A stretch of DNA of 26,009 bases from Nitrospirota bacterium. GTDB lineage: Bacteria > Nitrospirota > UBA9217. The notes under the pieces were generated by a model. That model was not told the origin of the DNA and did not search any database. It worked only from the letters and a program-made list of their open reading frames with translations. Positions 3,479 to 26,009 of the stretch are shown piece by piece. Within the stretch, counting starts at the first letter, position 1. The number at the start of each line of letters is the position of its first letter. The stretch covers positions 1-26,009 of the forward strand of contig DASPSR010000014.1 in the NCBI GenBank assembly GCA_035623825.1, in the 5' to 3' direction. Position numbers and translations under genes: made by a program.

Positions 3479-3480
3479 CG

Positions 3481-9869: not shown

Positions 9870-10228
9870 ACTTTCCGGATCCCTTCAGGTAATGCAAATG
9901 TCTGTCAGGTACGTATCTCTTAATGCCGCTCTCCCAGTTGGCTATGATCGTCTGACGAATATAGAGACGGATAAAGCACCGGATTCGATTTGGTCGATGC
10001 CTGATCTTAAGCACATCGCGCGTTTTTTCAGCGTGGGGGAGAGAGTTAAAGAACCCGCAGCGACGTTCGGCATAAAATTGACGATGCAGGATGAAGAGGG
10101 CGTGTTAAACGGAAAGGCAAGCGCCATGGTTTTTACCGTCGCTTACCTGGCATTATCCAGAAACAGGCCGCTACATGAGGCTCAGATTGTATGGTGCTTC
10201 CGGAGCGTCTTTATTTCACAATAAACTG

Positions 10229-10256
10229 TTGATAGCGGAATTGAGCGATATATAAT
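10229..10256 (+). promoter_or_regulatory. Sigma70-type promoter of the MoeB/ThiF gene
   Basis: TTGATA-16 nt-TATAAT, followed by a GGAGG RBS before ATG 10287. Confidence 0.55.
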
Positions 10257-10286
10257 GCGCACTCATGCGGGGGAGGAATCGACGCC

Positions 10287-11021: not shown

Positions 11022-11242
11022 AACGAATCACCTCAGACAATGTGCGAAGATAATGAGCGGGGCTCGGAATGGTTCACGATCTCTGCGGCGCCACGATGGC
11101 GGATTGGCTTGTGTTTCTCCACAATGTGATTATCCAAGGTCCGGGCTGAGAAACCGAACGGGCAATCGTGTCTATAGAATTATTTTGATATTGAATGAAT
11201 GGAGGGTTGCCAATACAGGATAGTTCATTAAGTTGCATGTAC

Positions 11243-11293
11243 TGGTAATTTCACCACCTTTTTGTTGACAGTAACCGAAAACAGGGTTATTAT
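11243..11293 (+). promoter_or_regulatory. Sigma70-type promoter of the signalling operon with two candidate operators
   Basis: TTGACA (11265-11270)-17 nt-TATTAT (11288-11293). TGGT-N6-ACCA at 11243-11256. TAACC-N8-GGTTA at 11272-11289. Confidence 0.6.
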
Positions 11294-11364
11294 TGATAGT
11301 AATAAAGTAGCAAATTGCCCTTCTTTGAGTGATTATCTTTGTCATAACACCATTCTTTCAGAAA

Positions 11365-12282
11365 ATGACTAAATTCGCCATAGTGCTTTATACTTGCTTG
11401 ATACTTATATCGGGAGGATTTGGATGCGATACGGGCAAACAGGCGGCGCCTCCCCGAAAAGCACCGGAAGGGCAACAATTACTGATCGGGCTTATTCCTG
11501 AGCAAAATCTGTTCCGGCAGATGGAGCGGTATGAGCCGCTTGCCCGGTATCTCTCGCAGAAAACCGGGATGCAAATTGCCTTGAAAATCCTTCCTCACTA
11601 CGGTAACATTATTGACAATTTTGTCTCGGGAAAAATAGATGGAGCGTTCTTTGGAAGCTTCAGCTATACGCTTGCTCATGCGAAGTTCGGCGTCCAGGTG
11701 ATTGCCCGGCCCGAAGACCGGGACGGGAAATCGACATATCACGGCCTCATCTTTGTGAGAAAGGACAGCGGGATCAAGTTCATTCAGCATATGGCAGGGA
11801 AGAGATTTGCCTTTGTCGACAGGGCCACGACAGCCGGCTATCTCCTTCCCCTTGCCTATTTCAAACAGCACAGGGTGGACTACAGGTCATACCTCAAGGA
11901 AATCTATTACACCGGGACCCACGAGGACGCGATTTACGATGTCCTGAACAAAAAGGCCGACATTGGAGCCGCGAAAAACACCGTCTATGAGAGGCTTGCG
12001 GAGACCGACAGCAGGATAAAGGGAGAGCTTGTCATCCTCGAACGCTCACCGGACGTGCCGGAGAACGGACTCGCCGTACGACAGGACCTCGATGAAGCCG
12101 TGAAGCGGAAGCTGACGGAGGTTCTCCTGAACATGCAGAACGACGCCGAAGGACGTTCAGTCCTGGAAACCTTCGGCGCGCGCAAGTTCATTGCAACATC
12201 GGATGCAGACTACCAACCAGTTTACAGGTACGAGAGGGAAATCGGCCTGAACCTCGCCACCTATGATTATCGGAACGAATAA
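11365..12282 (+). CDS. PhnD-like (phosphate/phosphite/phosphonate family) substrate-binding protein, probable lipoprotein
   Basis: Signal ending GGFGC, IGLIPEQN, YHGLIFVRKDS, GKRFAFVDRATTAGYLLP, GTHEDAI. Alternative GTG start at 11329. Confidence 0.88.
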   Translation: MTKFAIVLYTCLILISGGFGCDTGKQAAPPRKAPEGQQLLIGLIPEQNLFRQMERYEPLARYLSQKTGMQIALKILPHYGNIIDNFVSGKIDGAFFGSFSYTLAHAKFGVQVIARPEDRDGKSTYHGLIFVRKDSGIKFIQHMAGKRFAFVDRATTAGYLLPLAYFKQHRVDYRSYLKEIYYTGTHEDAIYDVLNKKADIGAAKNTVYERLAETDSRIKGELVILERSPDVPENGLAVRQDLDEAVKRKLTEVLLNMQNDAEGRSVLETFGARKFIATSDADYQPVYRYEREIGLNLATYDYRNE

Positions 12283-13739
12283 TGAAGAAAAAGATCATCA
12301 TAGGATTGAGCGCTTTTTCCCTTATATTTCTCTTGAGTTCGGTCTATACTATTGCGACCATAGAGCATGCAACGACGAAAATGGACAACCTGATCAGGCT
12401 CCATCAGGTCGAGATCCTGAGAGAGCATCTGCTGATACAGATCAAACGGACGCAGTCCGACATGTACCTGAAGGGGACCCCTTACGCCCGGAGCATCGAT
12501 ACGATCGTGAACCACATGAGGACGATGGGCGATATCGTCACCATGTGTTTTTCCTGTCACCACGCCGAGCCCGTGGCGAGGAGACTCACCGATCTCAAAG
12601 GAAAGGTCGAGGATTACAAGATCAACCTCAGCAGAGCTCTCACCATGAACGCGAATGCAAAGAGACTTCGTGCGGAAGAGGACCATGCTTTTCAGGTCGG
12701 TACGGAACTTATCGACGAGGTGGAAAACATCACTCAAATGGCGAACGTGAAGCTCGAGCAAAAGACACAGGCTGCATCCCAGGAGATTACCCGCACCAAG
12801 ATCATGCTCTACATCCTTGTTGTGGCGGTTCCCGTCGCTGTCATTGGACTTTCCATCCTTTTCATTCGGGGATTCACCACGCCCGCTCACGAGATTCTAT
12901 CGGCAACGAGACAATTGAAAAAGGGCGACCTGAGTTACCGGATTGAGGGCCTGAAGGATGAGTTCGGTGAGGTTGCCGCATCATTCAACGAAATGGCGGA
13001 GTCGATCAAAGATGATTACCTCAAGATGCAGTGGGCGGAGCAGCTCGTGGTGCTCGGGGAGATGGCGGGAGGACTGGCCCACGAGATCAAAAACCCCCTC
13101 GCGGGAATCAAGGCGTCCATGGAGGTGCTCACCATGGACACGACCCTCACTGAGGAGAACCGGGATGTCCTCCTGAAAGGGGTGGAGCAGATCAAGAGGA
13201 TAGAGGTACTCCTCAAGGCACTCCTGAATTTTGCCCGGCCGCCGAAGCCGCACTTTATGCCTGCTGATGTCAACAGCGTGCTTGATGTCACGATCGGCCT
13301 TGCACTGCGGCATCCCCAGTTTGCAACAAAGGACTCCAAGACGATATCGGTCGTCAAAGACTACGATGAGCGTCTTCCGAAGACGATGGCGGACCCCCAG
13401 CAGCTCCAGCAGGTGTTCATGAACTTGCTTCTGAACGCCGCTGATGCCATGCCGGACGGCGGTACGATAAGCGTTCAGACATCGCACGACGACTCGGTAC
13501 GATCCCTTCACATCCAGATCATCGATACGGGAAGCGGGGTCGACGAAACGGTGGTTGACAAGATCTTTCAGCCGTTTTTCACCACGAAACCGCAGGGAAC
13601 GGGATTGGGACTCGCCATAACAAAACGCCTCATTGAGCAGCATGGTGGAAGCATTAACGTCAAGAACAATCATGCAAAGGGGGTGGCATTCATGATCACG
13701 CTGCCTATCCGCGACAGGGAAGAGGTGCAGACCATATGA
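12282..13739 (+). CDS. Sensor histidine kinase with periplasmic CxxCH motif, HAMP, HisKA and HATPase domains
   Basis: TM1, periplasmic domain with CFSCH (12546-12560), TM2, HAMP (DEFGEVAASFNEM), AHEIKNPL, NLLLNAADA, FFTTKPQGTGLGL. TAATG overlap with the upstream gene. Confidence 0.95.
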   Translation: MKKKIIIGLSAFSLIFLLSSVYTIATIEHATTKMDNLIRLHQVEILREHLLIQIKRTQSDMYLKGTPYARSIDTIVNHMRTMGDIVTMCFSCHHAEPVARRLTDLKGKVEDYKINLSRALTMNANAKRLRAEEDHAFQVGTELIDEVENITQMANVKLEQKTQAASQEITRTKIMLYILVVAVPVAVIGLSILFIRGFTTPAHEILSATRQLKKGDLSYRIEGLKDEFGEVAASFNEMAESIKDDYLKMQWAEQLVVLGEMAGGLAHEIKNPLAGIKASMEVLTMDTTLTEENRDVLLKGVEQIKRIEVLLKALLNFARPPKPHFMPADVNSVLDVTIGLALRHPQFATKDSKTISVVKDYDERLPKTMADPQQLQQVFMNLLLNAADAMPDGGTISVQTSHDDSVRSLHIQIIDTGSGVDETVVDKIFQPFFTTKPQGTGLGLAITKRLIEQHGGSINVKNNHAKGVAFMITLPIRDREEVQTI

Positions 13740-15124
13740 GGGCTCCAGCAAAGATTTTTCTCATTGATGACGACGAGCTGATCATTTCCATGCTTTCGAG
13801 GGCTCTGAAGACCGAAGGGTACGATGTCCGTGCGCTCACGAGCGCGCGGGATGTGGTGAGCGAGGTCAAATCATGGGTGCCTGCGGTCGTCATGCTCGAT
13901 ATCCGGCTACCCGAACGCAGCGGGATCGAAATCCTCGAAGATATCATGAAGAGCGGTGTCCACACTCAGGTCATCATGCTGACGGCGGATGACACGGCGG
14001 AGACCGCGGTGAAGGCCATGAAGCTCGGTGCCGTGGACTATCTGACGAAGCCGTTCAACATCGATGAGGTGAAGATCGTCATCGGGAACTACGTTGAGCG
14101 GGCTAGGCTGCACCAGGAAGTCGACTATCTCAGAAAGGTCAATTCTGAGTTCTTTGATCGCGAGCTCATCGGCGAATCGGAAGCTATCAAAACAGTCAAA
14201 ATGGAAATTTCAAAGATGGCGAACGCCCGCGTTTCCAGCATTCTCATTACGGGAGAGAGCGGGACCGGCAAGGAGGTCGTTGCACGATACTTCCATCGCC
14301 TCGTTTCCGGTGATAACACATCGCGGCGGGTCCCCTTCCTGGGGGTCAACTGCGCCGCCCTGCCCGAGCAGCTGCTCGAGAGCGAGCTCTTCGGCTTCGA
14401 GAAGGGATCGTTCACTGACGCCAGGGCCGATAAGAAGGGGGTCTTCGAGCTTGCGAACGGCGGCACCATACTTCTTGACGAGATTGGTGATATGAATCCG
14501 AATCTCCAGACCAAGCTATTGCGGATCCTGGAGGAACGGACGGTACGTCATATCGGGGGGAAAGACGATATTGCCGTAGATGTGACCGTTATCACCACGA
14601 CGAACAAGAATCTCGCCGAGGCGGTCGAGAGCGGCGCATTCAGGATGGACCTGTTCTTCAGGCTCAGCACTTTTTATCTCCATGTCCCGCCGCTCAGGGA
14701 GAGAAAAGAGGATATCCCGCTCCTTGCCACGCATTTCCTCACATCCCTGGCCACACGATATAACAAAAAGAACGTTAAAAGCTTCTCTCCGGAGGCCGAG
14801 GAGTTCTTGGTTTCTTATGGATGGCCGGGGAATGTCCGCGAGCTCAGGAACGTTGTGGAACGGCTCGTGGTGCTCGAAAGCGCCGAGGTCATTCTTCCGC
14901 AGCATCTGCCGGACTGGCTTACAGGGCGATCAGTTGCCGAACCGAGGCAGTCAAGCGGCGGGTTTGTGCTGCCGGAGGCTGGGATATCACTCGATGACGT
15001 GGAAAAGGATCTTATTATACAAGCTCTGGACCGTGAAAAGCACAATAAGGCACGGGCGGCAAAACTCCTGCGCATCAGCTACGATACGCTCCGCTATCAG
15101 GTAAAGAAACTGGGGCTGGAGTGA
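13736..15124 (+). CDS. NtrC/AtoC-family sigma54-dependent response regulator
   Basis: REC domain, GESGTGKE, ESELFG, GSFTDA (GAFTGA loop variant), LLDEIG, FRMDLFFRL, WPGNVREL and a Fis-type HTH. ATGA overlap with the kinase. Confidence 0.96.
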   Translation: MRAPAKIFLIDDDELIISMLSRALKTEGYDVRALTSARDVVSEVKSWVPAVVMLDIRLPERSGIEILEDIMKSGVHTQVIMLTADDTAETAVKAMKLGAVDYLTKPFNIDEVKIVIGNYVERARLHQEVDYLRKVNSEFFDRELIGESEAIKTVKMEISKMANARVSSILITGESGTGKEVVARYFHRLVSGDNTSRRVPFLGVNCAALPEQLLESELFGFEKGSFTDARADKKGVFELANGGTILLDEIGDMNPNLQTKLLRILEERTVRHIGGKDDIAVDVTVITTTNKNLAEAVESGAFRMDLFFRLSTFYLHVPPLRERKEDIPLLATHFLTSLATRYNKKNVKSFSPEAEEFLVSYGWPGNVRELRNVVERLVVLESAEVILPQHLPDWLTGRSVAEPRQSSGGFVLPEAGISLDDVEKDLIIQALDREKHNKARAAKLLRISYDTLRYQVKKLGLE

Positions 15125-15137
15125 CGAGAACGACGTC

Positions 15138-15908
15138 TCAATCAGGCATTTTCTGAGGACCCATGACACGGGCCATTGCTTCCTGGGGCGGGATAAATTG
15201 GATGCCGACCCTGAACAAGCTGCTCTGATCGACGATCATGCTCCACCGGACTACACCGGCGGCCTGCTCCTTGATGTTGCTGAATGTGATCACATGCCCG
15301 GGCGCGAGTGGAGACATCGTCAGCATGCCAATCCCGGTATCACTGATATCGAGAACTTCCGCGCTGAGCCGTTCTCTTTGGACTGCATTGCCGTTCATGC
15401 CGGCCAGGGTCCCTGTCGAAAAGGTTATGGCTTTTGCCGTGAACCTTCTTTGGCACCGCCGCTTGTCATTTGTCAACCACTTCACGAATGATTCATAGTC
15501 CCGGTACGCAAGCGCGTCGTTTCTGTACGCGGGCCCCTTCCCCGCCAGGATCTTGTCTAGCGATTCCTTGACTATCTCCAGATCGAATGGTTTGGAAAGA
15601 AACAGGGACGCATTCTCCTGAATGAATCGCATGGTCGTGTCGTCAAGATCGCTCCCTGTCATTATGATGACCTTGGTGGCCGGAGAAACTTGTTTGATCG
15701 TTTTCATGATATCGAGACCGTTGAGGTCGGGGAGATGGATATCGAGAAAACAGACGTCATAGAATTGGGAGGCAATCTCTCTGAGCGCCTCTGTGCCGTT
15801 CTTAACGGTCTTCACCACAGTCTTGTCGTTTTGGAGCTTTGATGAGAGCGAATAAAGAATCAGATTTTCATCATCAGCTACCAGGATTTTTTTTATCGGC
15901 TGATCCAT
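15138..15908 (-). CDS. Response regulator with REC and C-terminal PilZ domain
   Basis: REC residues ADDE, FLDIHL and SKPF. PilZ signatures RRCQRR (RxxxR) and DISDTG (DxSxxG), plus GVVRW...VGIQF. Confidence 0.88.
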   Translation of the reverse strand: MDQPIKKILVADDENLILYSLSSKLQNDKTVVKTVKNGTEALREIASQFYDVCFLDIHLPDLNGLDIMKTIKQVSPATKVIIMTGSDLDDTTMRFIQENASLFLSKPFDLEIVKESLDKILAGKGPAYRNDALAYRDYESFVKWLTNDKRRCQRRFTAKAITFSTGTLAGMNGNAVQRERLSAEVLDISDTGIGMLTMSPLAPGHVITFSNIKEQAAGVVRWSMIVDQSSLFRVGIQFIPPQEAMARVMGPQKMPD

Positions 15909-15966
15909 CGTTGATTCGGGAGTTTCTTGAAAAATGTGAGAACGAAATTATCCTTACAAGATGTTC

Positions 15967-15982
15967 AGCAAGTATTGTACCA
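15967..15982 (-). promoter_or_regulatory. Sigma54 (-24/-12) promoter for the REC-PilZ gene
   Basis: Minus strand TGGTAC-AATAC-TTGCT with exact GG-N10-GC spacing, 58 nt before the ATG, and an A/T tract upstream. Confidence 0.75.
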
Positions 15983-16095
15983 TTTATTTTTTTATGAAGG
16001 TATTATAGCATTTTTTTGTTTTATAGATTTTACAGGCTTTTACAGCCACGGTCGTTAGTGAAACAACTTAAGTACTCGAGAAAATTTCAGAGTAT

Positions 16096-16131
16096 AGGGA
16101 AATTCACCAAATTGTGGTGGTGATTTAATCG
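16096..16131. promoter_or_regulatory. Candidate tandem enhancer (bEBP binding) sites
   Basis: AGGGAAATTCACCA (16096-16109) and TGGTGATTTAATCG (16118-16131) are offset by 22 bp and resemble TGGTAATTTCACCA at 11243. Confidence 0.4.
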
Positions 16132-16462
16132 CTTCCTGTACAAATATAACAGATGAAATCGGAACATAACCTCTTGATTCTTGATTGCAATAAGTGTATT
16201 ACTATACCTTGTCATTATCCTGGTTCATCGTAATGCACAAGATGAGACTGAAAGGAGAAATGACGAAGGCGGGTGCGGGGATGCTTTTTTGCTTTTAATC
16301 ATGATTTCAAGGAGATTGAAAGTTTCCGTTCAGCAAAAATAATACTTTCGATGCGATGTCCTTATATTATTGCCTTTTCATGTACGATTTTTAACGTGCA
16401 GCAACATCACGCGAATTTGAAAAAACAGTCATTTCCCTGGGACCTTCTTTTTTAAACTACAG

Positions 16463-16478
16463 TGGTATGATCATTGCT
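16463..16478 (+). promoter_or_regulatory. Sigma54 (-24/-12) promoter for the glycosyltransferase/TPR cluster
   Basis: TGGTAT-GATCA-TTGCT with exact GG-N10-GC spacing in the intergenic region. Confidence 0.7.
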
Positions 16479-16770
16479 AATATTTTGGACGCATTTGAAA
16501 GGCCGCTCATCTTATCGGACGAGATCCAAATAAGTTCATCTAGGGCCGATACCCATTTTATGGTGTCAAAAAGCACCTAGACCCGCAACTGTTCAATATC
16601 GAATGGACGGGACAGCAAAAGACCCTGTTCATGCAGCCCAAACAGATTGAAGAAAGAACCGATCATCCGGCTGACACCATAATCCTGCCATCTGTGCGGG
16701 AACGAAGGGCAGTAAGTACGCCGGCCTGATGCATGCAGGTGCAGGGTGCAAGCGAGGAACACGATCGTAT

Positions 16771-18594
16771 ATGACCAAGGCAACAGAACGGCATAACACG
16801 GCTTACCCAGAAGGAGGGCTGGCACAAGGGCCTTCTCTCAATAAATATCGATTGTTCCAGCTCCTGACCATCATAGCGATGTCTTGTGCGGTCTATAGCA
16901 ACGCCATCCGTAACGGGTTTGTCTACGACGACATCCCCCAGGTGGTGCAGAACCCGTGGATCAGAGAGGCGCGGTTCGTCAAGGAGATATTTTCCACCAA
17001 TGTATGGGCATTTCAGGGAATCAGCACCAACTATTACCGGCCCCTTATGCACATCAGCTTCATGCTGAGCTATTATCTCTTTGGTCTCGCACCTTGGGGA
17101 TTCCATGTGGTGAATATCCTGCTCCATGCCGGCGTTGCCGCCCTGGTACTTCTCATCTCCTCCCGGCTGCTTCGGACGGCCGAACCGTCAGCATCTTTGT
17201 TTTCCCGTTCCCTTCCCTTCCTCGCGGCCGTCCTGTTCGCTGTCCACCCTATTCATACCGAAGCCGTCGCCTGGATTGGGGGTGTCACCGACCTCTGTTT
17301 CAGCCTGTTCTTTCTGCTCGCACTTTATCTGTATATCCTCTCCACTGATAGGGGCGCCCATCAGAGGGGCCTTTACCTTCTTTCCGTGGCGTCCTTCTTT
17401 CTCGCAACCCTCTGCAAAGAGCCGGCCCTGACCTTCCCTCTCATACTTGCTGCATACGACTACGCCTACAGCAGGGAAGCGCTCCGGCCCCTGGATTATC
17501 TGAGAAGATATTCCCCCTATCTGGGAGCTGCAGCCGTCTATTTCATTCTGAGGGCCAATGCTCTCGGCGGATTTGCGCCAGTCAGGCGTCACGGCGAGTT
17601 GAGCGCTTATGAATACCTGATCAATGTCTTTCCCCTGTTCAGGCAGTATATGGGAAAGCTTCTCCTGCCGTCACATCTTAACGCCTACCACGTTTTTTTG
17701 CCGATCTCATCCATCTTTGAGCCGAACGGCCTGCTCTCCCTGGCAATAACCGTGGTCTTCGTCGGCATCATGCTGCTGGCCTTGAAAAAGAGCAAACCGG
17801 CTTTTTTCGCCCTTGTCCTGGTGCTGGTGCCATTGCTGCCGGCCCTTTACATCCCGGGTGCCGGTGACAACACCTTCGCCGAGCGATACCTCTATCTTCC
17901 GTCCGTCGGCTTTGTAATGCTTGTTGCTCTCATGGCGGGGCGGGTCGTGCAGCAGGAGCCGCGGCGGTCTTTCCCCCTGGCAGCGGTCCTCGTGTTCTTC
18001 GCCGTGAGCTATTCCTTTGGTACGGTGCAGAGAAACGGCGTCTGGAAAGATGATGAAAGCCTCTGGCGCGACGTGGTGCAGCATTCTCCGAACAGCGCGG
18101 TGCCCCACTACAATCTTGCTTGCGCCCTGAATGCACGGGGACGGATCGACGAAGCGATAGGGGAATATCAGGCAGCCATCAAGATCCAGCCGGCAGTCGT
18201 TGCCTATACGAGCCTCGGCGCGGCCTACCAGTCAAAGGGACTCTTCAACGAAGCCATAGAACAGTACGAACTTGCCGTGCGGCTGCAGCCAGGCGATGTC
18301 AATGCCCGCACTTTCCTCGCGGCTGCCTACGCAGAGTCGGGCGCACTGGACAAGGCCATAGAACATTTTCGTATCGTGGTACAGCTGCAACCGGATTCCG
18401 CAAACGCCCAGTACGGCCTGGGGAGGGCGTACCTCGAAAAGGGGCAGCTTGAGGAGGCCATATCCCATCTGCGGTCCGCCGTGCAGCTTGATCCTGATGA
18501 ACCGCTATTCGGCAACGCTCTGGATATGGCGTTATTGTTGCGAAAGCCGGCTAACCGACAGGGCGGCAAAGCCGGAAGCGTGGCGGGGGAATAA
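16771..18594 (+). CDS. TMTC-like GT-C membrane glycosyltransferase with about 4 C-terminal TPRs (paralog 1)
   Basis: FVYDD after TM1, YYRPL, FAVHPIHTEAV, CKE, AERYLYLP, RNGVWKDD..LW, then TPRs. ATG 16771 follows GAGGA; alternative start 16729. Confidence 0.88.
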   Translation: MTKATERHNTAYPEGGLAQGPSLNKYRLFQLLTIIAMSCAVYSNAIRNGFVYDDIPQVVQNPWIREARFVKEIFSTNVWAFQGISTNYYRPLMHISFMLSYYLFGLAPWGFHVVNILLHAGVAALVLLISSRLLRTAEPSASLFSRSLPFLAAVLFAVHPIHTEAVAWIGGVTDLCFSLFFLLALYLYILSTDRGAHQRGLYLLSVASFFLATLCKEPALTFPLILAAYDYAYSREALRPLDYLRRYSPYLGAAAVYFILRANALGGFAPVRRHGELSAYEYLINVFPLFRQYMGKLLLPSHLNAYHVFLPISSIFEPNGLLSLAITVVFVGIMLLALKKSKPAFFALVLVLVPLLPALYIPGAGDNTFAERYLYLPSVGFVMLVALMAGRVVQQEPRRSFPLAAVLVFFAVSYSFGTVQRNGVWKDDESLWRDVVQHSPNSAVPHYNLACALNARGRIDEAIGEYQAAIKIQPAVVAYTSLGAAYQSKGLFNEAIEQYELAVRLQPGDVNARTFLAAAYAESGALDKAIEHFRIVVQLQPDSANAQYGLGRAYLEKGQLEEAISHLRSAVQLDPDEPLFGNALDMALLLRKPANRQGGKAGSVAGE

Positions 18595-18599
18595 GCATA

Positions 18600-20426
18600 A
18601 TGACCGGTGGCATTGAGCAAAAAAGGACAGGCAACGTATTGTGGCTGCAGATAGCGGCTATCCTTCTGGTAAGCGTAGCCGTGTACTCCAACGCCGTCTT
18701 CAATGGTTTTGTGTCTGATGATTCATCACAGATAGTGGATAACCCCTGGATTAAAGACATAGGGCACCTCCCGGAAATATTTAGTAAAAGTGTCTGGAAC
18801 TTCCAAGGAAGCCTTTCTAATTATTACCGACCGCTCATGCATATTATTTTTATGCTGACTTACCACCTTTTTGGGCTGGCCTCATGGGGTTATCATGCGG
18901 TCAGTATCCTGTTTCACGCCCTGGCCTCGGTGCTTGTCTTCCTTATAACATCTAAACTTTTCAGGCAGTCTCGTCGCCGGATTTCCACTTCTGTTCTTAC
19001 ACCCCCGCTCATGGCCGCACTGTTATTTGCTACCCACCCCATCCATACGGAGGCAGTAGCGTGGGCATCGGCAATGCCTGAGCTGTCATTCACCTTATTC
19101 TTTCTCTTGTCGTTATATTTGTACACGCTCTCTTTTTCAGAAAATAACGCGGTATCCTATAACGGTAAGTTTCTTCTTTCCTTGGGAGCATTTTTCCTAG
19201 CCTCGCTGTGCAAAGAAACAGCCTTGACGCTCCCCATCATTCTGATGGCCTATGACTATGCTTTCCAAAATGGCCACCTCGTTCGCCGTCCAATGGAGGC
19301 GCTGAAACGTTACGTGCCTTTTATCCTCGTTGCCGGAGCTTACTTCCTGTTACGCTTTGGCGCCTTGGGCGGATTCGCACCGGATGCAAGTCGTCCCAAA
19401 ATAGACATCCAACAATTTGTCATCAATGTGTTTCCGCTGTTCGCGGGGTATCTTGAAAAAATGATCATCCCGGTAAAATTGAACGCTTTTTATATCTTCC
19501 ATCCCATCGAATCCATATTTGATACAAGGGGCGTCATCTCCCTTGCAGTCTCATTGGCGTTCATTTCATTTGTCCTTGTGGCTGCAAAGAAGGACAAAGC
19601 AGCCTTCTTCAGCCTTGTCCTGATCGGGATACCACTGCTCCCTGCCCTGTATTTCCCTGCAATCACGGGCAGTGTGTTCGGGGAACGATACCTCTACCTT
19701 CCCTCCTTTGGGTTCGTACTCCTGCTGGCGTTCTGGATCGATTGGGTCGGGGCCCGCAAGGAGAAATGGCTTTCCGTCACCGTAACCGGCGTCTTTGCCG
19801 CTTTGCTTTGTTTTTATTCCTTCGTGACGGTGAGCAGAAATGCCGTGTGGAAGGATGAATATACTTTTTGGACCGATACAGTGAAAAAATCACCGGATGG
19901 CGCGATACCCCATTACTGTCTGGGAACCGCTTTGCTGTCGCTTGGCAGGGTGGACGAAGCTATAGACCACCTCGAGTCCGCCTTAAGCCTACGGCCGACT
20001 TTGGACACTGAGGCGCGCGCACACAACAGCCTCGGGGTGGCGTACGCCAAGAAAGGATTGCTCAATAAGGCAATCGAAGAATTTTCAATCCGCTTAACAA
20101 TGGACCCCTATAATGCCATTATTCATACCAATATCGGGCAGGCCTATGTGGATTCAGGTTCAACAGATAAAGGTATCGAACATCTGCAAATCGCCTTGAC
20201 GCTAAAACCCGGGTTTGTCTCGGCCCATGAGAACCTGGGCATGGCTTACATGAAGAAGGGCTTGATAGACAAGGCAATCGAACAGCTTGAAACGGCCCTA
20301 CGATTGGAGCCCGGCGTTTCGAGGTATCACGCCAATCTTGCGAATGCCTATGAAATGAAAGGCTGGCATGAGAAGGCAGAGGAGCAGAGGCGCGCGGCAG
20401 CGAGCCTGATGAGGGGGGAAGAGTGA
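18600..20426 (+). CDS. TMTC-like GT-C membrane glycosyltransferase with about 5 TPRs (paralog 2)
   Basis: FVSDD, YYRPL, FATHPIHTEAV, CKE, GERYLYLP, RNAVWKDE..FW, then TPRs. Collinear with paralog 1. Confidence 0.88.
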   Translation: MTGGIEQKRTGNVLWLQIAAILLVSVAVYSNAVFNGFVSDDSSQIVDNPWIKDIGHLPEIFSKSVWNFQGSLSNYYRPLMHIIFMLTYHLFGLASWGYHAVSILFHALASVLVFLITSKLFRQSRRRISTSVLTPPLMAALLFATHPIHTEAVAWASAMPELSFTLFFLLSLYLYTLSFSENNAVSYNGKFLLSLGAFFLASLCKETALTLPIILMAYDYAFQNGHLVRRPMEALKRYVPFILVAGAYFLLRFGALGGFAPDASRPKIDIQQFVINVFPLFAGYLEKMIIPVKLNAFYIFHPIESIFDTRGVISLAVSLAFISFVLVAAKKDKAAFFSLVLIGIPLLPALYFPAITGSVFGERYLYLPSFGFVLLLAFWIDWVGARKEKWLSVTVTGVFAALLCFYSFVTVSRNAVWKDEYTFWTDTVKKSPDGAIPHYCLGTALLSLGRVDEAIDHLESALSLRPTLDTEARAHNSLGVAYAKKGLLNKAIEEFSIRLTMDPYNAIIHTNIGQAYVDSGSTDKGIEHLQIALTLKPGFVSAHENLGMAYMKKGLIDKAIEQLETALRLEPGVSRYHANLANAYEMKGWHEKAEEQRRAAASLMRGEE

Positions 20427-20582
20427 TTCAAGACCCGAAAAAATCAATTAAGGCCTGCGGTGACCTGCTGTGAACAAGAAGATGACACGGCATGCGATCA
20501 GCCATGACGGGATATGAGCAGGAAATGAAGGGCAAGCCGTAAGACGTTCCGACCCAAAAAGGACCGGAACCAGGGTTTCTCT

Positions 20583-21728
20583 ATGGCCAAGGGAAAATTA
20601 AGAGAATTCACTGTTTTTATGAAATACGCGACGGTCGGGGCGGTGGGGACTGCGCTGGACGTGGGATCGCTCTACGTTTTTGTCGATTTTCTGCACATTC
20701 CCGTTCTCGTGGCCGCAGCGATTTCCTTTATGCTTGCCGTTGTCAATAATTTCATCATGAACAAGATCTGGACGTTCCGGAACAATAGCCGCAATTTTAG
20801 GAAGCAGTTCATAAAATTCTTTATTGTGTCGGTAATCGGGCTTATTCTTACAGAAATCTGCATGGGTGTGTTCGTTTACCTTCTGGACATTTGGTATATC
20901 GCATCAAAACTCGCGACCTCGGTCATCGTATTGACCTGGAATTTTCTTGCGAACAAGAACTGGACGTTCACCGAGAAGGTCCGCCCTCGTCCCTCCGTCG
21001 AACAGTATGATTATGCCCTTACGATAGTGATCCCGGCTTTCAACGAAGCAAAACGCATAGAAAATACGCTCGAAGCCGTTCACCGTTATTTCGAACGCAA
21101 AGGCATCAAGCGGGAAATCATCGTCGTCGATGACGGCAGCAGCGACAACACCGCAGCGGTCGTGAACGCACTGGAAGCGAAGATCCACGATCTGCATTGT
21201 GTCCGCTATTTCCCCAATCGAGGGAAGGGGTACGCTGTCAAGAAAGGAGTGGAAAGGAGCCGAGGCGAGTATATCCTGTTTACCGATGCGGACAACTCGA
21301 CGCCGATCGAGGAGTTTGATAAGTTGTATCCTCTGCTGCCTCACGCCAAGGTAGTCATCGGGTCCCGCTATATGGCCGGCAGCGACGTAAAGATAAAGCA
21401 ACCGAAATACAGGATCCTTCTCGGCAGACTGGGGAACTTCCTCATCCAGGTTTTTCTCTTTGATGATATAAGGGACACCCAATGCGGGTTCAAGGCCTTT
21501 CAGCACAGGGCAGCAGAGGAGCTTTTCAGCCGCATGAAGGTCAACCGGTTCGGATTCGATATCGAGCTGCTGGCTATCGCATACCTGCTGAAGTATTCTG
21601 TACGCGAGGTTCCGGTAAACTGGTATAATTCTCCCGTGAGCAGGGTCAGGCCGATCAAAGACGCGCTTCGAACGTTCTCGGAGTTGCTCTATATAAAACT
21701 GAATCTGATGAGCGGACGGTATGAATAA
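20583..21728 (+). CDS. GtrA-like flippase domain fused to a GT2 polyprenyl-phosphate glycosyltransferase (Dol-P-Glc synthase-like)
   Basis: N-terminal 4-TM region (KYATVG...NNFIMNKIWTF...WNFLANKNWTF). C-terminal IVIPAFNE, VVDDGSSD, NRGKG, FTDAD, GSR, DTQCGFK and FDIELL. Confidence 0.92.
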   Translation: MAKGKLREFTVFMKYATVGAVGTALDVGSLYVFVDFLHIPVLVAAAISFMLAVVNNFIMNKIWTFRNNSRNFRKQFIKFFIVSVIGLILTEICMGVFVYLLDIWYIASKLATSVIVLTWNFLANKNWTFTEKVRPRPSVEQYDYALTIVIPAFNEAKRIENTLEAVHRYFERKGIKREIIVVDDGSSDNTAAVVNALEAKIHDLHCVRYFPNRGKGYAVKKGVERSRGEYILFTDADNSTPIEEFDKLYPLLPHAKVVIGSRYMAGSDVKIKQPKYRILLGRLGNFLIQVFLFDDIRDTQCGFKAFQHRAAEELFSRMKVNRFGFDIELLAIAYLLKYSVREVPVNWYNSPVSRVRPIKDALRTFSELLYIKLNLMSGRYE

Positions 21729-22779
21729 GGATGGCAACCGTGCAGACGAAGTCTCCGACGCGGGCGGAAAAGGCCCTTTAGCGTACAGACGGCTCGTGCG
21801 CGGGAATCAGAAGGCGCTCCGTGCAGCGAATAGCGCAAGCACGCAGTATGCGGGATGCTCCGGCGCTGGCGCTCGAATCCTGTTGGCCATCGTTATGATT
21901 GCCGTTCTGGCATCGGGGACATTCTTACGGAACAGGGTCTGGCGGAACAGCGTGCGTCTATGGGAGGACGTCGTAGAGAAAAGTCCGACAAAGGCGCGAC
22001 CCCATTATCAAATCGGTTTTTACTACGACAGGAAAGAACGCCTGAACGAAGCGATGCGGGAATACCAGACCGCCCTTCGGCTGGGGCCGGATCCCCTATC
22101 CGACCGGGCGCATAATAATCTCGGCAACATATACGGGAAACAGGGCCGGTATGGGGAGGCGATACGCGAATTTATGGCTATCCTTGCAGACAACCCCAGC
22201 GATTCCGCTGCGCATACCAACCTCGGCATCATTTACGCGAAGCAGGGACGCTCGGACGAGGCGCTCCGGGAATTCCAGGCTGCCACTCAAAGCGATCCCA
22301 AAGACGCCGCAGCGCATTACGCTTTCGGGAACGCATACCAGGAACAGGGACGCCTTGACGAGGCAATGCGTGAATATCATGCCGCCCTGCAACTCAGATC
22401 GGATTATGCTGATGCGCATAACAACCTCGGGTTGCTGTACGCAGAGCAGGGACGTTTTGCTGAAGCGATCCAGGAATTCCAGGCTGCAATAAATAACCAG
22501 CCTGAAAGTGCGGAAGCATACAACAACCTCGGAATCGTCCTCGCGGAACAGGGCCATTACGATGAGGCAATCCATTCGTTTCAGCTAGCGCTCCTGCGCG
22601 GACCTGAAAACGCCGAAGTGCACAAAAATATCGGGATCGTGTACGTCCGCCAGGGGCATCCCGAAGACGCCATACGGGAATTCCAGACTGCACTTCGCAT
22701 CGATCCCGGACACGCCGGCGTCCGTTCCTATCTGGAGAACGCGTACAAAGAATTACGAAGTGATCGCAGTATCAAATGA
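21721..22779 (+). CDS. Single-TM TPR protein corresponding to the C-terminal part of a TMTC-like protein
   Basis: One hydrophobic helix, RNRVWRNSVRLWEDVVEKSP, then 7 TPRs. No GT-C domain. Start uncertain. Confidence 0.85.
   Translation: MNKDGNRADEVSDAGGKGPLAYRRLVRGNQKALRAANSASTQYAGCSGAGARILLAIVMIAVLASGTFLRNRVWRNSVRLWEDVVEKSPTKARPHYQIGFYYDRKERLNEAMREYQTALRLGPDPLSDRAHNNLGNIYGKQGRYGEAIREFMAILADNPSDSAAHTNLGIIYAKQGRSDEALREFQAATQSDPKDAAAHYAFGNAYQEQGRLDEAMREYHAALQLRSDYADAHNNLGLLYAEQGRFAEAIQEFQAAINNQPESAEAYNNLGIVLAEQGHYDEAIHSFQLALLRGPENAEVHKNIGIVYVRQGHPEDAIREFQTALRIDPGHAGVRSYLENAYKELRSDRSIK
22059..22691 (+). repeat. TPR-coding internal repeats, 102-nt unit
   Basis: GGAATTCCAG(G/A)CTGC at 22269, 22473 and 22677 (204-nt spacing), with a variant at 22059. 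Confidence 0.8.
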
Positions 22780-22837
22780 TGCCGCCTCCAGGAGCGATAT
22801 CTGGTGGGATGAATTGCGGCGGCCGCAACCGGGAACT

Positions 22838-23953
22838 ATGAATAGTCGAGTAACGACACTTATTGCCCTCTGCCTGCTCCTCCTGTCCTGTGGTACAGGC
22901 CGTGCAGAAGAGTACGTGTGGAGTTTTGACAGGGGCGCTGATGCATTGCACTGGAAGGCTCTCAACGCGTCACCCGAGGTCACAGCAGCCGGCTTTTCCC
23001 TGGTCCGGCGGGATGAACCGTTCTGGTTTGTTTCACCTCAGAATCTCAATATTTCTCCCGGGCTTTCGTATGCAGAGTTCAGGCTCAAGGCCCCTGAAAC
23101 CTATCTGCGCGGGTATCTCATCGTGAAGACACGGGATGCCAGAAGTTGGGACGAGGAATTCACCCTGGGTCTGCCCGATACGTACCATGTCTACCGCATC
23201 AACATCCAGAAGGACAACAAGACCGGATCCCCCATTGACGCTATCGCATTCTCGTTCGGCGGCGTTGACCGTGTCTACATTGACTACGTCAAGATCTATG
23301 AACCATCGCCCGTTCAGCTCATTGCAGTCTATTGGGGAGAGTTCTGGAGCGTACCGTTTGCAAGCCCCTCAACCGTCAATTTCATCGAAACACCTCTGAT
23401 CGGGGATTATCCGTTCGTGGCACCGCTGTATGTCCTTCTCCTGGTCGTCGCGCTCTGTATGGTCGCCCTGCACAGGCCGGTTGCCAGGCAGTCGGTCGTG
23501 AAATCCCTCATCCTGGCATGCGTGGTGGCAGGGCTGCTGTTCGCCTTCCGGATGGATTATGGCTGGTACATGCAGTGGAGAGCGGACGGGTCATCGCTGG
23601 GTCAGAGAAGCGTTGATGAACGGATATCCCGAGTGGACGGCACGGGAGCATACGATTTCGCGCAAAGCCTGAAAAGAATCGTCCCTCCCGGCGCGACAGT
23701 AAGGATTTACGCCGGGACCCTTCAGGGCAAGGCGGGGATTCTCGAGGGCAAGGTCAGATACTATCTCCTTCCCGTGAAGGTGTCCGAAACCGCTCGGTAC
23801 ATAGCCGTCTTCAAGGACCCCGCTGTTTCCTACGATCCGGCCAAAAAATCACTGTCGAGAAACCACGAGATCGTGGCTCGGGATATAGAGCTGGTAACGT
23901 CCCTTGGCAAAGAAGGTTTTCTCTACAGATCCTCGGAGGGCGGCCATCCATGA
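22838..23953 (+). CDS. Hypothetical membrane protein with N-terminal exported domain, two TM helices and a C-terminal domain
   Basis: Signal or lipobox MNSRVTTLIALCLLLLSC, an aromatic beta-rich region ending VYIDYVKIY, and two TM helices. ATGA overlap with the next gene. Alternative GTG start at 22760. Confidence 0.8.
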   Translation: MNSRVTTLIALCLLLLSCGTGRAEEYVWSFDRGADALHWKALNASPEVTAAGFSLVRRDEPFWFVSPQNLNISPGLSYAEFRLKAPETYLRGYLIVKTRDARSWDEEFTLGLPDTYHVYRINIQKDNKTGSPIDAIAFSFGGVDRVYIDYVKIYEPSPVQLIAVYWGEFWSVPFASPSTVNFIETPLIGDYPFVAPLYVLLLVVALCMVALHRPVARQSVVKSLILACVVAGLLFAFRMDYGWYMQWRADGSSLGQRSVDERISRVDGTGAYDFAQSLKRIVPPGATVRIYAGTLQGKAGILEGKVRYYLLPVKVSETARYIAVFKDPAVSYDPAKKSLSRNHEIVARDIELVTSLGKEGFLYRSSEGGHP

Positions 23954-25389
23954 CGATCATGATGCTCGCATATGCTTTGGCGGTGCCAGCCACGACCGGG
24001 TTCCTGTTCGTCACCTGGTGCACCGGTTCAGAAGCCGGTCCGGGCGCCTTGGAGCGGCTCGTCCTCGGCTTCGGCATCGGCACCGGGATGATCACATTCG
24101 AAACGTTCCTTCTCGGGCTTGTCCGGATACCTTTGAGCAGTTCGGTTATCGCAAGCCTGCAGATCGCAACGGCGATTCTTCTCGGGTATCTCCTTTACCG
24201 GTCAGGAACACCTTGGCGGCGGCTTTTCGGACCTGCGGCTGCAGGTTCTGATTCGTCGTTTGCGTCAGCGAAGCACCTGGAACGGATCGTGATCCTTGTC
24301 CTCACCGCATGGGTCATCGCAAAGGTCCTGTTCGTTCTGTACGAGGGTTTTACCCTGCCGGAACACACGTCGGACAGCTGGGAACAGTGGAGTTCAGGCG
24401 CTAAATTCTTTTTTTACGAGAAAGGTCTCGCTCTTGATTCCGGGAATGAGCATTTTTTTGGAGCGGGCTATCTGAAAGTGCCGCGATATCCCCTGAATGT
24501 CCCCCTCATGCAGGTCTGGGTTTCTCTCTGCATCGGGGAAGCCAATGAAGTGTACATGAAGATATGGAATTCACTGTTTTTCATATGCATGATCGGCCTG
24601 CTTTTCCTTACTCTCCGAAAGAAAACATCCCTGATGATTGCGATTCTTGCCTCCTTCTTCCTTTCGACCGTTCCGCTGCTCACCTATCACGCGCTCGTCG
24701 CATATGCGGACCTGCCATTGAGCTTCTACGCCCTCTGCGCCATGGTCTCCTTCTGGGATACCATCGACGCCCTTGGGAGCGGACGTGTCGGCCGTGCCAG
24801 AGGTCTGCTCGTGCTCATGGGCACCTTTGCAGCGTTGTGCGTATGGACGAAGATGGAGGGCCTGTTCTTTGCAGCGGCCTTCTCCGCATCTCTGGGGCTC
24901 TATTGTCTGGTGAAAAAGATTCCGGTCAAGCAGGCCATGGTGTTTTTCGCTCCCCCTGCTCTCGTCACCGTGCCGTGGTATGTCTTTTTGCACAGCATCA
25001 ACGTCCCGGTAAGCTACGGCGAGGTCGGGCAGCTGGGCACAACCATCGCAAAGGGGATTCATTTCCAGGTCCTTCCGGTCATAGCAGAGCAGGTCCTGTT
25101 CTCGGCGAATTTCAACCTGATCTTTTTGTTCCTGACGCTGTTGGTCATCGCCGGATACCGGAGGATCGTGGCATCCAACCTTGTATATCTTTATGCGGCG
25201 TTGCTCTCCGTCATGGCGATGTTTCTTGTGCTGTATCTGGGCTCGGAAACGTATCGGTGGGTCCTGAACCTGACAGCGGTCAACCGGAACATCCTGACCT
25301 TCATCCCGATGTCGTACTATGTGGCGGCACTGACTGCCGGCAGGATTCTCGCGGGAGAGGCGCCGCCGACCGCGGATCTGGGAAAATGA
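23950..25389 (+). CDS. Polytopic membrane protein, probable GT-C (ArnT/PMT-like) glycosyltransferase without TPRs
   Basis: About 12-13 TM helices. Loop motif DSWEQW..AK, YPLNVP, YADLP, WTKMEG and a late NR. Confidence 0.75.
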   Translation: MTIMMLAYALAVPATTGFLFVTWCTGSEAGPGALERLVLGFGIGTGMITFETFLLGLVRIPLSSSVIASLQIATAILLGYLLYRSGTPWRRLFGPAAAGSDSSFASAKHLERIVILVLTAWVIAKVLFVLYEGFTLPEHTSDSWEQWSSGAKFFFYEKGLALDSGNEHFFGAGYLKVPRYPLNVPLMQVWVSLCIGEANEVYMKIWNSLFFICMIGLLFLTLRKKTSLMIAILASFFLSTVPLLTYHALVAYADLPLSFYALCAMVSFWDTIDALGSGRVGRARGLLVLMGTFAALCVWTKMEGLFFAAAFSASLGLYCLVKKIPVKQAMVFFAPPALVTVPWYVFLHSINVPVSYGEVGQLGTTIAKGIHFQVLPVIAEQVLFSANFNLIFLFLTLLVIAGYRRIVASNLVYLYAALLSVMAMFLVLYLGSETYRWVLNLTAVNRNILTFIPMSYYVAALTAGRILAGEAPPTADLGK

Positions 25390-25461
25390 AACCCCAAGAG
25401 AGGGCTTTTTCACCCTGCAAAGCGAATTTTGACCATGCCTCGGAGGAGCCGCACCGGCGAT

Positions 25462-26009
25462 ATGAAGAGCAAACCGCGGAACAATGACCAGCACGTTGAT
25501 TCTCGATGGCTGAAATATGGCAGGAACCCTCTTGTCCATGTCGCCCTGATAATCATGCTCACCCTTGCCGCCTATTCCAACACCTTTCATGTGCCATTCC
25601 AGTTCGATGACCCGCGCAGCATCAGCGAGGTCCCCTTTGTCAGGGACATACACCAGTTCCCAAATCCCCTAATGCTGCAGCGTGCCGTAGGATTCTTTAC
25701 GTTTGCCCTCAACTACTGGCTCCATGGTACTGACGTTGCCGGTTACCATATCGTCAACCTCGTTATTCATATCATGAATGCGTTCCTCGTATACGCACTC
25801 GTAGCTCTGAGCTTCCGGACCCCGATCCTGCAAAGGTCTTCGTTGATGCGGTATGCGAAGCAGATAGCCCTTTTCACAGCCCTGCTCTTCGCCTGCCATC
25901 CGATACAGACCCAGGCTGTAACATACATTGCCCAGCGCTTCGCCTCGCTAGCGACGCTTTTTTTCCTGCTGAGCCTCGTCGCCTATGTCCGGTCGAGGCT
26001 TCCTCTCGG
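25462..26009 (+). CDS. TMTC-like GT-C protein (paralog 3), cut by the window end
   Basis: Not in the ORF track. GGAGGAG upstream. Reads MKSKPRNN...AYSNTFHVPFQFDD...FALNY...GYHIVNLVIH...FACHPIQTQAVTYIAQR and stays open to the end. TPRs not visible in the window. Confidence 0.88.
   Translation, partial: MKSKPRNNDQHVDSRWLKYGRNPLVHVALIIMLTLAAYSNTFHVPFQFDDPRSISEVPFVRDIHQFPNPLMLQRAVGFFTFALNYWLHGTDVAGYHIVNLVIHIMNAFLVYALVALSFRTPILQRSSLMRYAKQIALFTALLFACHPIQTQAVTYIAQRFASLATLFFLLSLVAYVRSRLPL

Follow-up and report, generated by a model that had tools for sequence, protein, structure and literature searches.

A Probable Sigma54-Dependent Gene Cluster for Extracytoplasmic Glycosylation with TMTC-like Proteins in a Nitrospirota Bacterium

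Gene Organization of the Cluster

The window analyzed in this study is a stretch of 26,009 nucleotides (nt) of contig DASPSR010000014.1 from an uncultured Nitrospirota bacterium (assembly GCA_035623825.1). Its 3' part holds a gene cluster for putative glycosyltransferases of the GT-C type, a predicted donor synthase, and proteins with tetratricopeptide repeats (TPRs), which the first-pass annotation had read as a candidate bacterial TMTC-type protein glycosylation system under sigma54 control. The cluster consists of seven open reading frames (ORF1 to ORF7), all on the plus strand, which follow an AT-rich intergenic stretch of 820 nt, lie 3' of a sigma54-type promoter motif, and reach the end of the window. 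From ORF1 to ORF7, the distances between successive genes are 5, 156, -8, about 58, -4, and about 40 nt, with negative values denoting overlaps; such short gaps and overlaps fit one operon and suggest co-transcription.

All gene-level elements named in the first-pass annotation were found, co-oriented on the plus strand: three TMTC-like genes, a GtrA-GT2 fusion, a TPR protein, a membrane protein, and a fourth, different GT-C gene. The observation behind that annotation was confirmed, and its interpretation is partly supported. The closest relatives of every cluster protein were proteins from metagenome-assembled genomes (MAGs) of Nitrospirota or Thermodesulfovibrionales. Terminator-like sites were not enriched (15 versus 11.3 +/- 4.0 expected), and the shadow ORFs within the cluster, which run antisense or in alternative frames, gave no Pfam match and were set aside. 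For comparison, a genome scan with the ORF6 family yielded 37 loci (L001 and following numbers), which were annotated by BLAST and iterated local hidden Markov models.

TMTC-like Proteins ORF1, ORF2, and ORF7

The eukaryotic TMTC1-4 proteins (CAZy family GT105) are protein O-mannosyltransferases of cadherins that depend on dolichyl-phosphate-mannose (Dol-P-Man). Three genes of the cluster encode proteins resembling them. ORF1 (16771-18594, plus strand) is predicted to contain 11 transmembrane (TM) segments followed by about six periplasmic TPRs; its longest reading frame begins at 16729, and the alignment with relatives places the probable start at the ATG at 16771, behind a conserved GAGGAA. 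ORF2 (18600-20426, plus strand), a second paralogue carrying FVSDD, YYRP, HPIHTEAV, KETALT, and PLLP, is 45% identical to ORF1 over 606 columns and has the same architecture; in both, a membrane domain of about 430 residues precedes C-terminal TPRs matched by Pfam. The third, more divergent gene, ORF7 (25435-26009, plus strand; listed from a TTG at 25429), is cut by the window end, and its first 190 or so residues, with FQFDD and HPIQTQAV, are 27% identical to the N-terminal part of ORF1 (E 2e-17). The orthologues of ORF7 in L001-L005 are full length, 711-767 amino acids (aa), with C-terminal TPRs, and the one in L002 has KEIAFT and EHRLY and lacks YRP and PxxP. As the first-pass annotation had stated, the acidic DD after the first TM segment is kept in all three proteins (FVYDD in ORF1, FVSDD in ORF2, and FQFDD in ORF7).

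An alignment of 59 sequences of the ORF1 family showed invariant residues at D67/D68, Y103-R104-P105, H176-T177-E178, K230-E231, P368/P371, and E385/Y387/Y389, and R386, the Arg of ERxxY, was conserved in at least 90% of them. In the AlphaFold2 model of ORF1 (predicted local distance difference test (pLDDT) 88.5, predicted TM-score (pTM) 0.86), a single helix is followed by a large loop that contains short helices, then by six helices, another large loop with helices at 293-312, four helices, and twelve TPR helices. In the excerpted text of PMC6801728, the TMTC/POMT layout is given as 11 TM segments arranged 1-6-4, with large first and fourth outer loops. The same 1-6-4 layout of 11 TM segments, followed by a C-terminal extracytoplasmic TPR array, is present in the ORF1 model and also agrees with the excerpts of PMC7801869.

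The positions of the motifs in this model follow the same pattern. Excerpts of PMC7801869 list, among the TMTC motifs, M1 (DD) and M2 (SHKSYRP) in outer loop EL1, M4 (KE[T/Q]xxT) in EL3, M5 (DW, metal-binding) in the fourth outer loop, M6 (PxxP) in TM9, and M7 (ERxxY) in EL5. In the ORF1 model, D67/D68 and YRP lie in EL1, HTE in EL2, KE in EL3, PxxP in TM9, and ExYxY in EL5. Of the seven published motifs, ORF1 and ORF2 therefore retain five in the corresponding loops, namely M1, M2 (the YRP part only), M4, M6, and M7, in the forms YYRP, KEPALT or KETALT, PLLP, and ERYLY for the last four. In addition, nine residues, LFAVHPIHT, are common to ORF1 and the segment of human TMTC3 printed in the excerpted part of PMC7801869, a source whose excerpts also mention TMTC homologues "even among prokaryotes".

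The relatives of these proteins are numerous. A search with ORF1 gave 3188 relatives at E <= 1e-3 among 8000 scored, and a profile of 14 N-terminal domains matched 124,542 cluster representatives at E <= 1e-3 and 53,429 at E <= 1e-30, with 1.84 billion searched. Among the 120 ORF1 relatives listed, 4 carry PF13231 and 3 bear the automatic JGI name 'protein O-mannosyl-transferase'; nearly all annotations of the family read 'TPR repeat protein'. Of 30 feature matches in the ESM Atlas, 17 were clusters in which 21-30% of the members carry PMT_2 (score 0.98), and one was a eukaryotic TMTC_DUF1736 cluster (score 0.94). The top PDB matches of the TPR parts were TMTC and OGT. From these motifs and the modeled topology, ORF1, ORF2, and ORF7 appear to be TMTC-like GT-C candidates standing outside the family as Pfam defines it.

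Donor Synthase ORF3 and TPR Protein ORF4

ORF3 (20583-21728, plus strand) is the predicted GtrA-GT2 fusion, and Pfam matched both of its parts: GtrA_DPMS_TM (PF04138), a GtrA-like domain of four TM segments, at residues 14-129 (6.5e-27), and Glycos_transf_2 (PF00535) at residues 147-315 (3.9e-30). The motifs VVDDGSSD and FTDADN are readable in its sequence. The best PDB match was the Dol-P-Man synthase of P. furiosus (5mlz, 3.2e-24), followed by ArnC (6e-10 to 7e-9) and the GtrB-type protein sll0501. Like 5mlz, ORF3 combines a GT2 domain (residues 145-345) with a four-helix GtrA/DPMS membrane domain (residues 11-129), and both align to that structure in the opposite order, the membrane domain coming first in ORF3 and last in 5mlz. 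The same fusion occurs in 117 of the 120 ORF3 relatives listed. The locus encodes a predicted polyprenyl-phosphate sugar synthase fused to a GtrA-type domain, in agreement with the earlier suggestion that it supplies its own lipid-linked donor. The automatic JGI name of 33 of these 120 relatives is dolichyl-phosphate beta-glucosyltransferase, not mannosyltransferase, which cautions against presuming mannose as the sugar.

ORF4 (21721-22779, plus strand) contains seven TPR_2 stretches and was described at first as a TPR-only protein. Its TPR content was borne out; the protein also has one N-terminal TM segment (residues 51-69), so that it is better described as a predicted membrane-anchored periplasmic TPR protein. 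It aligns with ORF1 from residue 420 onward, that is, with the last TM segment and the TPR part (37% identity, E 3e-32), which suggests that ORF4 is equivalent to that module of a TMTC-like protein. Orthologues of ORF4 are present in L001, L002, L003, and L005.

The ORF5-ORF6 Pair

ORF5 (22838-23953, plus strand; longest reading frame from 22760, likely start at 22838) is the membrane protein of the first-pass annotation and has two TM segments. It starts with a signal-like N-terminus and a variable periplasmic domain, and the TM segments are followed by a conserved C-terminal domain with a YYLLP motif. No Pfam or NCBIfam family was matched by ORF5 at E <= 0.01; at E <= 10, Pfam gave a weak TgpA_N match only (E 0.054; 12.9 bits, with the cut-off at 30), and the ESM Atlas gave only 'hypothetical' clusters.

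ORF6 (23950-25389, plus strand) encodes a compact, ArnT/PMT-like multi-TM protein of 479 aa that lacks a large periplasmic domain. The gene begins with an ATG and overlaps the end of ORF5, at its stop, by 4 nt, and this overlap is conserved. ORF6 had no Pfam match at E <= 10, so that neither PMT/PMT_2 nor MIR was detected and the protein falls outside PMT/GT39 by this measure; a PDB search with its sequence gave no match, and one with its profile gave a single chance match. The AlphaFold2 model of ORF6 (pLDDT 87.4) was compared with known structures by Foldseek. The best PDB match was ArnT (5ezm, E 1.2e-4, query TM-score (TMq) 0.50; 5f15), followed by AglB, Pmt4, Pmt1-Pmt2, PglB, and ALG9, with almost all matches after ArnT being GT-C structures. 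PF13231 is present in 17 of the 88 ORF6 relatives listed, chiefly in the more distant of them, and 3 of the 17 carry PF02366 as well. Judged from this model, ORF6 is a GT-C of a lineage different from that of the TMTC-like proteins, as had been proposed for the fourth transferase gene.

The most constant association among the related loci was that of the C-terminal half of ORF5 with ORF6, which extends to Patescibacteria and Omnitrophota. Of the 34 loci having upstream DNA, 22 contain an ORF5-like gene together with the ORF6-like gene, and in 21 the two are adjacent; in L004, they are separated by one TMTC-like gene. The pair is tandemly duplicated in L014 (5033-9212) and L019 (6184-11377), both in MAGs of the Thermodesulfobacteriota type. 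In L008 (12460-14786, minus strand), an IS21-type IstB gene and a Mu-like transposase gene lie about 1 kb downstream of the pair.

Because the pair is conserved, is translationally coupled through its 4-nt overlap, and includes a protein without a family, it was chosen for complex prediction. The ORF5-ORF6 complex scored 0.81 and the best of three controls 0.00; 58 of 80 solved complexes and 2 of 110 mismatched pairs came up to this mark, counts that calibrate the score only roughly, since custom alignments were used. The runs agreed in at least 95% of contacts, with a partner pLDDT of at least 78. The predicted interface involves the two helices and the YYLLP motif of ORF5 (Y308 and P312 are invariant in the ORF5 alignment) and, on the ORF6 side, helices and the periplasmic loop 135-156 with the invariant residues D142 and K152. 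These predictions support, short of proof, the idea that ORF5 is a dedicated partner subunit that binds ORF6 as a heterodimer.

Promoter Motifs and Regulatory Genes

A sigma54-type -24/-12 promoter motif, TGGTATGATCATTGCT, with GG-N10-GC spacing, is located at 16463-16478 on the plus strand, about 290 nt 5' of the ORF1 start. A second sigma54-type motif, TGGTACAATACTTGCT, is located at 15967-15982 on the minus strand, about 60 nt 5' of a divergent response regulator-PilZ (RR-PilZ) gene, which it faces. The pattern TGGYAYN5TTGCW had 2 matches in the 26-kb window against 0.05 expected, a count reached in 0 of 100 shuffles, and both matches fall inside the 820-nt intergenic region 5' of the cluster. 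The plus-strand motif is kept at the orthologous site in L001 (4333-4348) and L002 (4230-4245), that is, in two of the three relatives having upstream DNA, and the minus-strand motif is likewise kept in L001 (3817-3832) and L002 (3697-3712).

Between the two motifs lies an inverted repeat, TCACCAAATTGTGGTGGTGA (TCACCA-N8-TGGTGA, 16104-16123), which is unique in the window (0 expected), kept in L001 and L002, and not found in the remaining 35 loci. It is located about 120 nt upstream of the minus-strand motif and about 340 nt upstream of the plus-strand motif, and it is possibly an activator-binding site. The leader of about 290 nt (16490-16770) contains a perfect inverted repeat of 11 nt (16558-16568 / 16672-16682) and blocks that are also conserved in L001 and L002. 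A consensus fold of the leader from two sequences was uninformative because the sequences were too few. The Rfam search gave nothing in the whole window, and in the intergenic region at E <= 1 only a miRNA model below threshold.

A gene for a sigma54-dependent response regulator (13736-15124, plus strand) is located near the cluster; it combines a receiver, an AAA+ domain, and a Fis-type helix-turn-helix (Response_reg; Sigma54_activat, 2.9e-60; HTH_8) and is a candidate activator of the cluster. Its presumed partner is a HAMP histidine kinase (12282-13739, plus strand; Pfam HAMP, HisKA, and HATPase_c). The divergent RR-PilZ gene (15138-15908, minus strand) encodes a response regulator (Response_reg, 2.5e-25) with a weak C-terminal PilZ match (3.9e-4, under the curated cut-off). 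In L001 and L002, all three genes are found in synteny with the cluster, and the kinase orthologues there are 79-81% identical and the RR-PilZ orthologues 75% identical. An assignment of the activator as the PEP-CTERM regulator PrsR was tried and rejected, as its score of 366 bits was below the cut-off of 502.6 and also below its own AtoC and NtrC scores. The motif conserved in relatives and the adjacent activator gene make the sigma54 control proposed in the first-pass annotation plausible.

Related Loci and the Downstream Operon

The order ORF1-ORF3-ORF4-ORF5-ORF6-ORF7 is kept in L001, L002, L003, and L005, in which ORF6 is 74-80% identical, and the same parts occur reordered in L004 (ORF6 59%) and in L014 of the Thermodesulfobacteriota (37%). 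No orthologue of ORF2 was found at this position in L001, L002, L003, and L005, so ORF2 is an extra paralogue in the window. The G+C content of the ORF2 region is about 0.50 and that of ORF1 about 0.56, and ORF2 may be a later insertion of a paralogue. In L005, the ORF6 orthologue (10001-11441) is split into the overlapping ORFs 10001-10303 and 10194-11441, by either a frameshift or an assembly error. Across the whole set, an ORF3-type GT2 gene was present in 14 of the 37 ORF6-centered loci, representing several phyla, and TMTC-like genes were present in 9. The recurrence of the GtrA/GT2 association, on which the first-pass annotation had made its reading depend, was surveyed in loci centered on ORF6.

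A third sigma54 motif was found 3' of the ORF7 orthologue in L001-L005. Next in these relatives (in L002 at 13790-21410) come, in this order, genes for a beta-propeller of the NHL type, for one cytochrome or two, for a YncE-like propeller whose signal is lipoprotein-like, and for a large protein. The cytochromes contain six CXXCH motifs each and 19-21% Ser+Thr, and the large protein, of at least 688 aa, contains 22.7% Ser+Thr and gives the impression of an outer-membrane barrel. The set looks like a porin-cytochrome conduit, and the Ser/Thr-rich cytochromes and the large Ser/Thr-rich protein are candidate acceptors. Nothing relevant came from a search of the literature for cytochrome glycosylation in Nitrospirota.

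Other Genes of the Window

The window begins with genes for a KdpD-type sensor kinase and a KdpE-like regulator (782-4188). The listed ORF of the latter overlaps kdpD by about 140 nt, so that its real start is probably later. Genes for a permease, a DNA glycosylase, an LPG_synthase_C-like protein, and a ThiF-like protein also lie 5' of the cluster. A gene for a PhnD-like periplasmic binding protein (11329-12282) ends exactly at the start of the histidine kinase gene (12282). Since no gene for an ABC permease or ATPase was seen next to it, the PhnD-like protein may be the ligand-binding partner of the sensor kinase, not part of a transporter.

Discussion

The region is probably a sigma54-dependent operon for a self-contained extracytoplasmic glycosylation machine, whose likeliest acceptors are Ser/Thr residues of envelope proteins. 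In the proposed pathway, the GT2 domain of ORF3 would transfer the hexose of a nucleotide sugar to polyprenyl phosphate at the cytoplasmic face of the membrane, and the GtrA-like four-helix domain of the same protein would help to carry the lipid-linked sugar to the periplasmic face. There, four GT-C transferases would use it as donor. ORF1, ORF2, and ORF7 would each combine an 11-helix catalytic domain, with the DD after helix 1, and a periplasmic TPR array of their own; ORF6 would work as a heterodimer with the two-helix protein ORF5; and ORF4, as a free-standing membrane-anchored TPR module, could serve as an adaptor. The acceptors would most likely be Ser/Thr residues of envelope proteins chosen by the TPR arrays, and the genes would be co-regulated.

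The TMTC-like proteins of the cluster resemble TMTC1-4 in having an N-terminal domain of 11 TM segments ahead of an extracytoplasmic TPR array, in the motifs DD, YRP, HPIHTE, KE(x)xxT, PxxP, and ERxxY in corresponding loops, and in the occurrence of several paralogues with different TPR arrays. They differ in being bacterial and periplasmic, in that the donor lipid would be a bacterial polyprenol, and in that their genes sit together with their own donor synthase. Several results weigh against the proposed pathway, and the first of them concern the identity of the TMTC-like proteins. Neither ORF1, ORF2, and ORF7 nor any of 14 N-terminal domains of TMTC-like proteins matched Pfam TMTC_DUF1736 (PF08409) at E <= 10, and only 1 of the 14 touched PMT_2 (E 0.069). 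The DW of motif M5 is missing, being replaced by L-N in ORF1 and ORF2 and by L-D-Y in the ORF7 type. Lacking both the TMTC_DUF1736 match and DW, the proteins lie outside the TMTC family in the strict sense, so that the TMTC-type assignment of the first-pass annotation stands for motifs and topology and fails for these two features. The PDB profile search with the 14 N-terminal domains gave no match at E <= 10, and the sequence search with the ORF1 N-terminal domain gave one chance match only (E 1.8). The comparison of the TMTC-like N-terminal domain with the ORF6 family by hhalign was weak, both with 14 sequences (probability 2.4%) and with 151 sequences (12.6%, E 0.0023); the latter alignment was colinear over 192 columns, and in it the K(E) and N positions conserved in the two families were paired. 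The comparison with known structures, which supported a GT-C fold for ORF6, returned for the full-length ORF1 model only TPR structures among the matches listed and says nothing of its membrane domain. Since this search was swamped by TPR matches, the GT-C fold of ORF1 is argued from motifs and topology, with indirect support for such a fold in the TMTC-like proteins from the 4 of 120 relatives with PF13231 and from the ESM Atlas clusters.

Further results of this kind concern the acceptor. The candidate acceptor operon lies beyond the window end and was seen only in relatives; ArnT, to which the ORF6 model is closest in structure, is a lipid A transferase; and beyond the close relatives, the ORF5-ORF6 pair stands amid housekeeping or sugar-nucleotide genes without TMTC-like genes. 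The three-component systems of GtrA, GtrB, and GT-C, including the pentofuranose type, modify glycans according to the excerpted text of PMC11127046. On the main rival explanation, which we consider possible and clearly less likely than protein acceptors, the cluster is a system of this type that decorates a glycan or lipid, such as lipopolysaccharide (LPS) or lipid A, exopolysaccharide, or some other glycoconjugate of the envelope: the lipid-linked sugar would come from ORF3, ORF6 and ORF5 would transfer it, and the TPR proteins would act on or scaffold polysaccharide export. The combination of GT2, GtrA, and GT-C is presented in the same excerpts as a hallmark of systems modifying O-antigen and other glycans. 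The pair also lies among epimerase, GT4, NeuB, and GT2 genes in L006 and beside GlmU-/GlmS-like genes in L007, and the TPR parts score against the polysaccharide-export proteins PgaA, BcsC, and PrsT, all under the curated cut-offs. However, no flippase, polymerase, ABC exporter, or other polysaccharide-assembly gene was found among the cluster genes, and three paralogues with their own TPR arrays together with a free TPR module fit protein recognition better, as in TMTC and OGT. The motif set, moreover, is that of TMTC-type protein O-mannosyltransferases.

The cluster can be compared with characterized systems. The GtrA/GtrB/GtrC systems carry out O-antigen glucosylation in Shigella and Salmonella. 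Like them, the cluster encodes a GT2 polyprenyl-phosphate sugar synthase, a GtrA-family domain, and a GT-C together (ORF3 and ORF6). Unlike them, it has GtrA and GT2 fused in one protein, four GT-Cs instead of one, three of these with TPR arrays, and a predicted partner subunit for ORF6; it also stands outside any O-antigen or phage context and behind a sigma54 motif. The lipid A aminoarabinose system is similar in that the best structural match of ORF6 is ArnT (GT83) and ORF3 matches ArnC, whereas ORF6 has no sequence-level match to ArnT or any PDB chain, is shorter, lacks the periplasmic C-terminal domain, and pairs with ORF5, and no arn genes are nearby. The one bacterial precedent for the proposed chemistry is described in excerpts of PMC8698208 and 10.1101/2023.08.23.554508, namely the actinobacterial Pmt (GT39) with Ppm1, in which a GT-C with a dedicated donor synthase uses a polyprenyl-phosphate sugar on secreted proteins. 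In contrast to Pmt, ORF6 remains below the Pfam PMT/PMT_2 thresholds, which only its distant relatives reach, and has no MIR domain by Pfam; the TMTC-like enzymes carry TPRs, and the host lineage is Nitrospirota, presumably Gram-negative. The best-supported model is a periplasmic glycosylation system that depends on a polyprenyl-phosphate hexose and resembles the GtrA/GtrB/GT-C systems in making and using the donor and TMTC or OGT in choosing the acceptor through TPRs. It would differ from both by the fused GtrA-GT2 protein, the four GT-Cs, the free TPR module, and the predicted GT-C partner.

The assignment of the promoter has counterevidence of its own. A sigma70-like site with 10 of 12 matches (16316-16343) offers an alternative promoter, the sigma54 motif is distant from the ORF1 start codon, and in L005 the cluster is kept behind a different upstream region that has no sigma54 motif. 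The inverted repeat is also much closer to the minus-strand motif than to the plus-strand motif. The sigma54-like motif might therefore not be a working promoter, with the cluster expressed from a sigma70-type promoter or by read-through, and the two-component system might control, for example, the RR-PilZ gene only. We regard this as unlikely: two exact motifs, far above expectation, both fall in this intergenic region, the plus-strand site is nearly base-for-base identical in L001 and L002 amid diverged DNA, and a further sigma54 site precedes the next operon in five relatives.

It is improbable that the genes are mere neighbors, with ORF3 and ORF5/ORF6 forming a housekeeping module and the TMTC-like genes being unrelated paralogues or non-catalytic TPR scaffolds; although the TMTC-like family is so large that chance adjacency is possible, most ORF5-ORF6 loci lack a TMTC-like gene, and ORF2 is absent from the syntenic relatives, the gene order is kept in four relatives, the parts are reshuffled yet together in L004 and L014, the overlaps and short gaps suggest co-transcription, and the residues expected for catalysis are invariant in the ORF1 family.

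Within the proposed pathway, a far-reaching version can be formulated. It holds that a Nitrospirota sigma54 regulon couples the first bacterial TMTC-type protein O-glycosylation, with a lipid-sugar synthase of its own, three GT-Cs guided by TPRs, and an ArnT-like GT-C of two subunits, to surface acceptors encoded downstream, and that the bacterial family of about 1.2e5 clusters is the prokaryotic root of the O-mannosylation of animal cadherins. This version is doubtful, and we put it forward only as a bold conjecture.

To our knowledge, TMTC enzymes are known only from eukaryotes. A full-text literature search, which covered few subscription journals and is no proof of absence, found no characterized bacterial TMTC-like enzyme or homologue, in agreement with the statement in the first-pass annotation that no bacterial locus of this type has been characterized. 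A solved structure of a TMTC-like membrane domain was found neither in the PDB by the sequence searches nor among the fold matches listed, and in the excerpts of PMC7801869 the catalytic activity of TMTC is described as first inferred by modeling.

If the acceptors are glycans or lipids, the locus would be an elaborate but ordinary envelope-modification system. If true, the predicted ORF5-ORF6 heterodimer would show a bacterial GT-C that has a small subunit dedicated to it, which is unusual. The locus offers a compact, expressible system for a very large bacterial family, with its own donor synthase and, in the relatives, plausible acceptor genes. With it, one could address whether bacteria perform TPR-guided protein O-glycosylation, which sugar and acceptors are used, and how a TMTC-type active site works. 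If the reading as TMTC-type protein O-glycosylation is true, the locus would provide a tractable model for TMTC enzymology.

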